From Candidatus Borrarchaeum weybense (GTDB lineage: Archaea; Asgardarchaeota; Sifarchaeia; Borrarchaeales; Borrarchaeaceae), in assembly GCA_019057385.1 (NCBI GenBank), contig JAHQJS010000006.1:256001-320000 (forward strand): a stretch of 64,000 nucleotides of DNA, read 5' to 3'. Of the stretch, positions 19,680-49,772 are shown piece by piece (the stretch's first letter is position 1; each line of letters starts with the position of its first letter). Under the pieces are notes generated by a model, which did not search any database, was not told the DNA's origin, and was given only the letters and a program-made list of their open reading frames with translations. The position numbers and the translations under genes were made by a program.

Positions 19680-19935
19680 TGGTGCTCCGGCCGGGATTTT
19701 CAGGGTAGACAGACGTCAAGTCCCATTCGAACCCGGGTTTTGGGCGTGCTGTAATCAATGATATTTGATGAATACACGGTTCCCCCGATTGATCGGTTGA
19801 TCGAATGTCCAGGGGTTTCTCCCAATTCTGCACAGAGTACAAAGAAGAGTCGAGAGCCCCAGATGCTTTCGACTTAGAATTTGTTTATTTAGAACCGTTT
19901 ATGCCTTCTAAATGGCCGGACTACACCACCGGAGC
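19680..19935 (-). tRNA. tRNA-Glu(CTC) with encoded CCA, interrupted at four sites (probably five introns)
   Basis: Removing 19868-19912, 19817-19850, 19739-19808 and 19697-19725 gives GCTCCGGTGGTGTAGTCCGGCCAAGCATCTGGGGCTCTCGACCCCTGGACCCGGGTTCGAATCCCGGCCGGAGCACCA, a typical archaeal tRNA-Glu. Each junction forms a BHB or BHB-like motif. Confidence 0.9.
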
Positions 19936-49681: not shown

Positions 49682-49772
49682 AGCCGGGGGGAGGAATTGA
49701 ACCTCCGTAAAGCGGATCTGCAGTCCACCGCCTCTAAGAGGGAGATATTTCCAGCCTCTAGGCTACCCCGGC
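49682..49772 (-). tRNA. tRNA-Cys(GCA) with a 19-nt D-loop intron
   Basis: GCCGGGG acceptor stem, GTGGA-CTGCAGA-TCCGC anticodon arm, U73 discriminator. Intron 49735-49753 forms a strict BHB (AGAG/CTCT helix, GCT and TAG bulges). Confidence 0.93.

Follow-up and report, generated by a model that had tools for sequence, protein, structure and literature searches.

The 70-nt insert in the variable loop of a tRNA-Glu(CUC) gene of this Borrarchaeum genome probably consists of two stacked BHB introns, an outer one (intron a) and an inner one (intron b), of which b would be removed before a by the splicing endonuclease EndA and an RNA ligase. The two introns share a 4-nt strand, GGGG, that can pair with only one of its two partners at a time. 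The anatomy of the insert, the resemblance of both introns to the ordinary variable-loop introns of the genome, the variation seen among relatives, the computed folding energies and the presence of two EndA-family genes all bear on this reading.

Layout of the gene

The gene lies on the minus strand at 19935-19680 of the window (the whole 64,000-nt stretch of DNA that was analysed, C6:256001-320000 of the assembly) and was missed by both ARAGORN and Rfam. On that strand it begins with 5' GCUCCGG-UG-GUGU-AGUCCGGCCA and ends with 3' UCCCGG-CCGGAGC-A-CCA. A BHB scan covering the whole gene (~255 nt) gave four insertions. The geometry used was, from 5' to 3', outer helix (h), 4-nt central strand (of the central helix, H), 3-nt bulge and inner helix (h'), then inner helix, 4-nt central strand, 3-nt bulge and outer helix; cuts were placed after the second bulge base, with the gene's own perfect T-loop intron as the template. 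The features are as follows.

19680..19935, minus strand: tRNA-Glu(CUC) gene of 256 nt that encodes its CCA and contains 178 nt of introns; from the sequence and the spliced cloverleaf
19935-19913, 19867-19851, 19816-19809, 19738-19726 and 19696-19680, minus strand: exons
19868..19912, minus strand: D-loop intron of HBh' type, 45 nt; H CGGC/GUCG 4/4, h 1, h' 6 (BHB scan)
19817..19850, minus strand: canonical anticodon-loop 37/38 intron, 34 nt; H CUCU/GGAG 4/4, h 4 (the anticodon stem), h' 1
19739..19808, minus strand: variable-loop insert, 70 nt; no central helix for the insert as a whole
19697..19725, minus strand: strict hBHBh' T-loop 59/60 intron, 29 nt; H UUCG/UGAA 4/4, h 5, h' 3

Removal of the inserts restores a canonical cloverleaf of 77 nt, whose anticodon stem is GGGG/CCCC, whose V loop is GGAC and whose T stem is CCGGG; the junction reads ...CCCCU-GGAC-CCGGG.... 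An intron-free paralogue in this genome, tRNA-Glu(UUC), shares the body and has UGAC as its V loop, and in nine intron-free Asgard tRNA-Glu(CUC) genes the V loop is NGAC, with CCGGG or GCGGG after it. Because the spliced product matches both this paralogue and the Asgard tRNA-Glu(CUC) genes, the exon junction between GG and AC is secure; owing to the repeated A and C, three registers describe it equally well.

The variable-loop insert

The original prediction had described the 70 nt as lacking a good single BHB, and this was borne out: in none of the three registers that give the product does a single BHB span the insert (0-2 of 4 central pairs). Two-step paths were enumerated strictly, by removing any inner intron and then the remainder, with 3-nt bulges and at least three central pairs at each step. 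The split in which b is followed by a ranks first among all strict two-step paths and has these elements.

19780..19808, minus strand: proposed intron a, outer, variable loop 45/46, 29 nt; H CCCU (19814-19811)/GGGG (19785-19782) 4/4, bulges GGA and AA+A, h 0, h' 1
19739..19779, minus strand: proposed intron b, inner, at or just inside the 3' junction of a, 41 nt; H GGG (19784-19782)/CCC (19744-19742) plus G.A
19782..19785, minus strand: shared GGGG, 3' strand of the central helix of a and 5' strand of that of b, the two pairings being mutually exclusive

Intron b has bulges AAC and AAA, an outer helix of 1 bp and an inner helix CGUGU (19778-19774)/GCACG (19749-19745) of 5 bp. Its central helix has 3/4 pairs, as in the relaxed BHB class, and that of a has 4/4. 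A flanking helix of at least 2 bp is present in b; in this genome intron a offers 1 bp inside and none outside, its inner helix being an imperfect hairpin with a single closing C-G pair. Judged by the strict criterion of the 2026 Asgard census discussed below, intron a would be 'not BHB-like'. When b is removed first, the motif of a is intact. When a is removed first, CCCU faces CCCA and b is left without any motif of at least three central pairs.

Most of what had been predicted for the two introns was thus recovered: the coordinates of b, its GGG/CCC helix and its bulges, now with the G.A mismatch and a longer inner stem than the CGTG/CACG first described; the coordinates of a, its CCCT/GGGG helix, its GGA/AAA bulges and the product CCCCTGG joined to ACCCGGG, now with the qualification that its inner helix is 1 bp; and the loss of b's motif, CCCT lying opposite CCCA, if a goes first. 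The count of five introns in the gene is the best in silico reading, given the top-ranked a/b split and the three other introns. Two claims held in part. Intron b was said to have been inserted at the 3' junction of a: the boundary coincides with that junction to within 2 nt, but its exact point is ambiguous, because the junction sits within a run of A, and b may lie just inside a. The splicing order was said to be obligatory: in silico, b does need the GGGG of a still attached, but the idea itself is not new.

Shuffled inserts gave an equal or better two-step split in 173/3000 cases (5.8%) with a capped score. With an uncapped score, 46/3000 mononucleotide shuffles (1.5%) and 112/3000 dinucleotide shuffles (3.7%) matched or beat the a/b split, which is therefore above chance, though only moderately. 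A relaxed BHB solver, run automatically over the genome, was too permissive: it returned spurious intron sets for many genes and a false anticodon for tRNA-Glu(CUC), and its output was used only for variable-loop cases checked by hand. A three-level search on another long insert gave thousands of paths. Relaxed motifs are cheap, and the case for a and b must therefore rest on further evidence too.

Proposed order of splicing and the enzymes

In the pathway that we favour, intron a would be an ordinary V-loop 45/46 intron, its near-3'-terminal GGGG pairing with CCCU at positions 40-43, the 3' strand of the anticodon stem. Intron b, lodged at the 3' junction of a or 1-2 nt inside it, would use this GGGG as its 'exon-side' strand, the GGG of a pairing with the CCC of b and adjoining the 5-bp hairpin stem of b. 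In the primary transcript the tRNA body could fold natively while GGGG is paired with b, so that b would be cut first. Ligation after its removal would bring AA beside the 3' exon, GGGG would switch to CCCU, and a would then be cut to give ...CCCCUGG joined to ACCCGGG.... Were a released first, b would no longer be removable. The predicted cut sites lie between 19809 and 19808, between 19780 and 19779 and between 19739 and 19738.

Folding energies were computed with ViennaRNA at 37 C for tRNA-Glu(CUC) molecules from which the other three introns had been removed. The minimum free energy (MFE) of the precursor is -52.4 kcal/mol; a fold with the BHB of b and a native anticodon stem reaches -52.3 kcal/mol and one with the BHB of a -47.3 kcal/mol, the b-cleavable fold being about 5 kcal/mol the more stable. 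In this model, the precursor is biased to the b-first path. The intermediate lacking b has an MFE of -42.4 kcal/mol and forms the BHB of a at -37.6 kcal/mol, that is, 4.8 kcal/mol above its MFE. When the BHB is forced on the genome's six clearly defined V-loop introns, it lies 2.0-5.7 kcal/mol above their own MFE; as 4.8 falls within this range, intron a is no worse than its class.

The genome encodes two PF01974/PF02778 proteins, of 208 aa and 223 aa; their genes lie at C4:663,4xx-664,0xx and C5:195,8xx-196,5xx. In the 208-aa EndA, Tyr, His and Lys stand at the expected catalytic places, as judged by eye from the unaligned translation, and the best structure matches are endonuclease chains of Aeropyrum pernix, Sulfolobus tokodaii and Pyrobaculum aerophilum, which we take to be the catalytic subunits of (alpha-beta)2 heterotetramers. 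The 223-aa protein seems, again by eye, to be without the catalytic His and looks like a structural subunit. The two genes fit an (alpha-beta)2 EndA, putatively of the broad-specificity, crenarchaeal-like type. According to the accounts in PMC5829648 and PMC4033280, this type, like epsilon2, cuts non-canonical introns.

The same three cuts might be made with no obligatory ligated intermediate, EndA cutting both sites of b and the 5' site of a on one precursor and the ligase joining the exons directly. Order would then matter only so far as the 3' cut of b has to come before GGGG is lost. Such a route gains from the established knowledge that EndA uses a separate active site for each BHB bulge, and from the middle cut, between 19780 and 19779, which the motifs of a and b have in common. 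We nevertheless consider it unlikely: the central helices of a and b are mutually exclusive, so that at least one refolding step is needed. In silico the two routes look alike.

Introns in other tRNA genes

The case for a and b as two introns also draws on the other tRNA genes of the genome. In the 4.18-Mb assembly, ARAGORN and Rfam find only about 20 archaeal-looking tRNAs, which indicates that most tRNA genes are hidden from standard tools by introns. Anchoring on the acceptor and T arms gave about 40 archaeal tRNA genes, of which roughly half are interrupted at T-loop 59/60 by an intron of 28-31 nt. In at least six class-I tRNAs (Ala-GGC, Thr-UGU, Ile-UAU, Gln-UUG, Arg-CCU and Arg-GCG), the second V-loop base is followed by an intron of 28-35 nt. 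Val-GAC has a comparable 28-nt intron one base further on, and the V-loop introns of Arg-UCG and Ile-GAU are less clear-cut. Example loci from this survey of V-loop and T-loop introns are:

Contig C4, 332411-332544
Contig C5, 248578-248680
Contig C5, 262327-262464

The V-loop introns are laid out as 1 nt, a stem-loop, 4 nt that pair with positions 40-43, and 2 nt, with an outer helix of 0-1 bp and an inner helix of 2-10 bp. Intron a (29 nt, with GGGG-AA before AC) shares its position, length and 3' end with this class; only the inner stem is poor. The layout of intron b is the same (C, CGUGU...GCACG, CCCA, AA), with the GGGG of a, not an exon, as the partner strand. This match is the strongest argument for our reading, in which a and b would both be ordinary units, b having lodged at the end of a. 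A search of the rest of the genome for paralogous copies of intron a or b found none.

Two further genes came into question as stacked cases. The apparent tandem V-loop introns of tRNA-Ile(UAU) have a single-intron solution, and the 63-65-nt variable-region insert of tRNA-Pro(UGG) (C5:184757-184953) fits a single relaxed BHB (3/3/2), so that stacking is unneeded. Since each can be solved with one intron, neither provides a second secure stacked case.

Several other loci were noted alongside. At 49682-49772 of the window (minus strand), ARAGORN calls a tRNA-Leu(UAG) whose 19-nt D-loop insert has a strict hBHBh' motif (H 4/4, h 4, h' 3); without this insert the sequence becomes a 72-nt tRNA-Cys(GCA) with discriminator U73, and the Leu call is probably wrong. 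By hand parsing, C5:182207-182460 (minus strand) is probably a 254-nt tRNA-Trp(CCA) gene, with an anticodon-loop intron of about 65 nt that pairs with the anticodon loop, and with about 80 nt between the anticodon stem and the T stem that could be a compound insert. A 466-nt candidate tRNA gene at C6:872128-872593 has good acceptor and T arms around some 390 nt of unparsed interior. On contig C1 (179 kb), whose GC content is slightly higher, intron-free tRNA genes of bacterial appearance are packed closely together (C1:19435-19896 and others); the contig may be foreign, the assembly being rated 7% contaminated.

Other ways of splitting the insert

A different decomposition of the 70 nt is conceivable, and we hold it to be quite improbable. 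It comes in two forms: a 23-nt intron (19770-19748) nested within b as a third level, or a 26-nt outer register (19807-19782) that leaves a 7-nt V loop. Of the local BHBs, the 23-nt element scores best (H UGUA/UACA 4/4, h 2, h' 5), and three-step paths that end with a do exist. Its removal, however, is not needed for the tRNA product, and in B. yapensis the motif has lost one H pair and one h' pair, both uncompensated. The 26-nt register, with an h' of 3 bp and a GAUC/GAUC hairpin, is better stacked than the 29-nt intron a, but a 7-nt V loop was found in no Asgard tRNA-Glu examined, and the GG of its 3' 'bulge' can pair with the CC of the anticodon stem to form a continuous 7-bp helix, which leaves no bulge. 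Among the alternatives under ALTERNATIVES, the 26-nt register was therefore rejected for its wrong product and its 3' bulge absorbed into a helix, and the 23-nt third-level intron for not being conserved.

Sequence comparison among relatives

The split into a and b was compared across seven sequences: the present genome, the same-genus Candidatus Borrarchaeum yapensis (found twice) and four JGI contigs. B. yapensis has a copy of the whole gene (~255 nt) that is 96% identical. The seven sequences differ at 12 sites, all intronic: five in intron b, every one of them in its loop or a bulge, three in the D-loop intron, two in the anticodon-loop intron and two in the T-loop intron, with none in intron a or the exons.

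Four metagenome runs were examined, three of which cover the gene. Metagenome contigs from three further studies retain the full 70 nt, one of them at only about 85% identity. Their changes within the insert fall in the loop of b, at its first (bulge) base and at C19787; the change C19787 to U, found in two metagenome variants, gives the inner stem of a one more pair, A-U, and so a length of 2 bp. In one low-depth contig, a 1-nt deletion removes the terminal G-U pair of the stem of b. No substitution falls within H or h' of either intron: CCC, CGUG/CACG and the A run are untouched, and GGGG (19785-19782) is unchanged in all variants compared. The relatives found are all close (85-99% identical), and for that reason show no covariation. 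Counted over all variants, 1/20 bases of the interior of intron a and 8/24 of the loop of intron b vary.

Across B. yapensis, the four JGI contigs and the three metagenome runs, the exons are invariant while the introns vary by about 5-10%; in the X6 variant the figures are 0/77 changes in the exons and 16/178 (~9%) in the introns. Because the exons are invariant while the introns vary, selection must act on the gene, and there must be a way of removing the insert. It is thus highly improbable that the insert is not spliced by EndA, with the gene dead or the insert otherwise removed or tolerated: the motifs of a and b are both weak by strict criteria, but the conservation of the exons makes a pseudogene unlikely, the D-loop, anticodon and T-loop introns have good motifs, and a tRNA census of the genome, itself incomplete, showed no other tRNA-Glu(CUC) gene.

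The original prediction had proposed a search of orthologous loci for versions with intron a alone. There are none in B. yapensis, the four JGI contigs or the three metagenome runs covering the gene, and the same sequences contain no allele without a or without b. A 214-nt 'joint' in the metagenome data is only the intron-free UUC paralogue. In three same-genus genomes (69-77% complete) the gene is absent from the assemblies, and a same-class genome (80% complete) has only tRNA-Glu(UUC), with D-arm and T-arm introns.

Discussion

Single-unit scoring of inserts, as practised in censuses, will misclassify stacked introns as motif-less. Alone, the tRNA-Glu(CUC) case leaves the knowledge of archaeal tRNA splicing unchanged; it offers a clean, conserved Asgard example and a simple substrate on which to study how a two-subunit EndA cleaves in order and how the RNA refolds.

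The position of intron b invites a scenario for its origin, which we regard as very unlikely. Intron b would have entered at precisely the phosphodiester where EndA cuts the 3' end of a, an excised linear intron having been mis-ligated into the cleaved splice site and then copied into DNA. If this were true, b would be a fossil of the arrival of an intron at the RNA level, with a bearing on how Asgard tRNA introns arrive, and some long inserts counted as 'non-canonical' in Asgard censuses would be predicted to be stacks of ordinary introns. That the boundary of b lies within 2 nt of the cut site of a is possibly informative; a single case cannot carry the argument. Should the coincidence recur elsewhere, it would suggest that new introns enter at splice sites.

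Archaeal tRNA introns so nested that the last BHB forms only after the others have been processed are described in PMC3978253 and PMC3728597, which cite Sugahara 2007 and Tocchini-Valentini 2009; to cope with them, tRNAscan-SE 2.0 removes introns in repeated rounds (PMC8450103). As in the nested pre-tRNA introns of Thermoproteales, as far as those accounts describe them, the proposed BHB introns of Borrarchaeum lie so close together that one would have to go first. A broad-specificity (alpha-beta)2 EndA, putative in Borrarchaeum, would be common to both. The host, in contrast, is an Asgard archaeon, and the gene would carry five introns, against a maximum of three per tRNA gene in Thermoproteales (PMC4033280). 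The dependence also takes another form than in the Thermoproteales cases as the citing papers present them: it would run through a shared 4-nt strand, the inner intron needing the GGGG of the outer one, whose own helix can form at any time.

Heavily interrupted tRNA genes are known from other Asgard archaea, with genomes in which 92-95% of the tRNA genes bear introns (Valentin-Alvarado 2024, PMC11291895). A 2026 Asgard census (10.64898/2026.10.13.758758) gives up to five intervening sequences per gene and 2.12 per gene for Borrarchaeaceae, and finds variable-region inserts often to be without a canonical motif (21% canonical). By word searches of its text, it treats every insert as a single unit, scored in the fully spliced context, and makes no mention of compound or nested inserts. 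The present gene resembles those described there in its many non-canonical introns, up to five per gene, and its stacked a/b pair would count as one non-canonical insert under that scoring.

A variable-loop tRNA intron of Thermofilum pendens is cited in PMC3978253 from Kjems et al. 1989. By that citation it is likewise an EndA-type V-loop intron, but a single one. Outside Archaea, the twintrons of Euglena plastids are introns within introns of the self-splicing group II/III kind, of which the inner is excised first. The inner-first order is what they would have in common with Borrarchaeum; chemistry and recognition are unrelated. Nested, ordered archaeal tRNA introns are already known, and the Borrarchaeum case is a further example of them in a new lineage.
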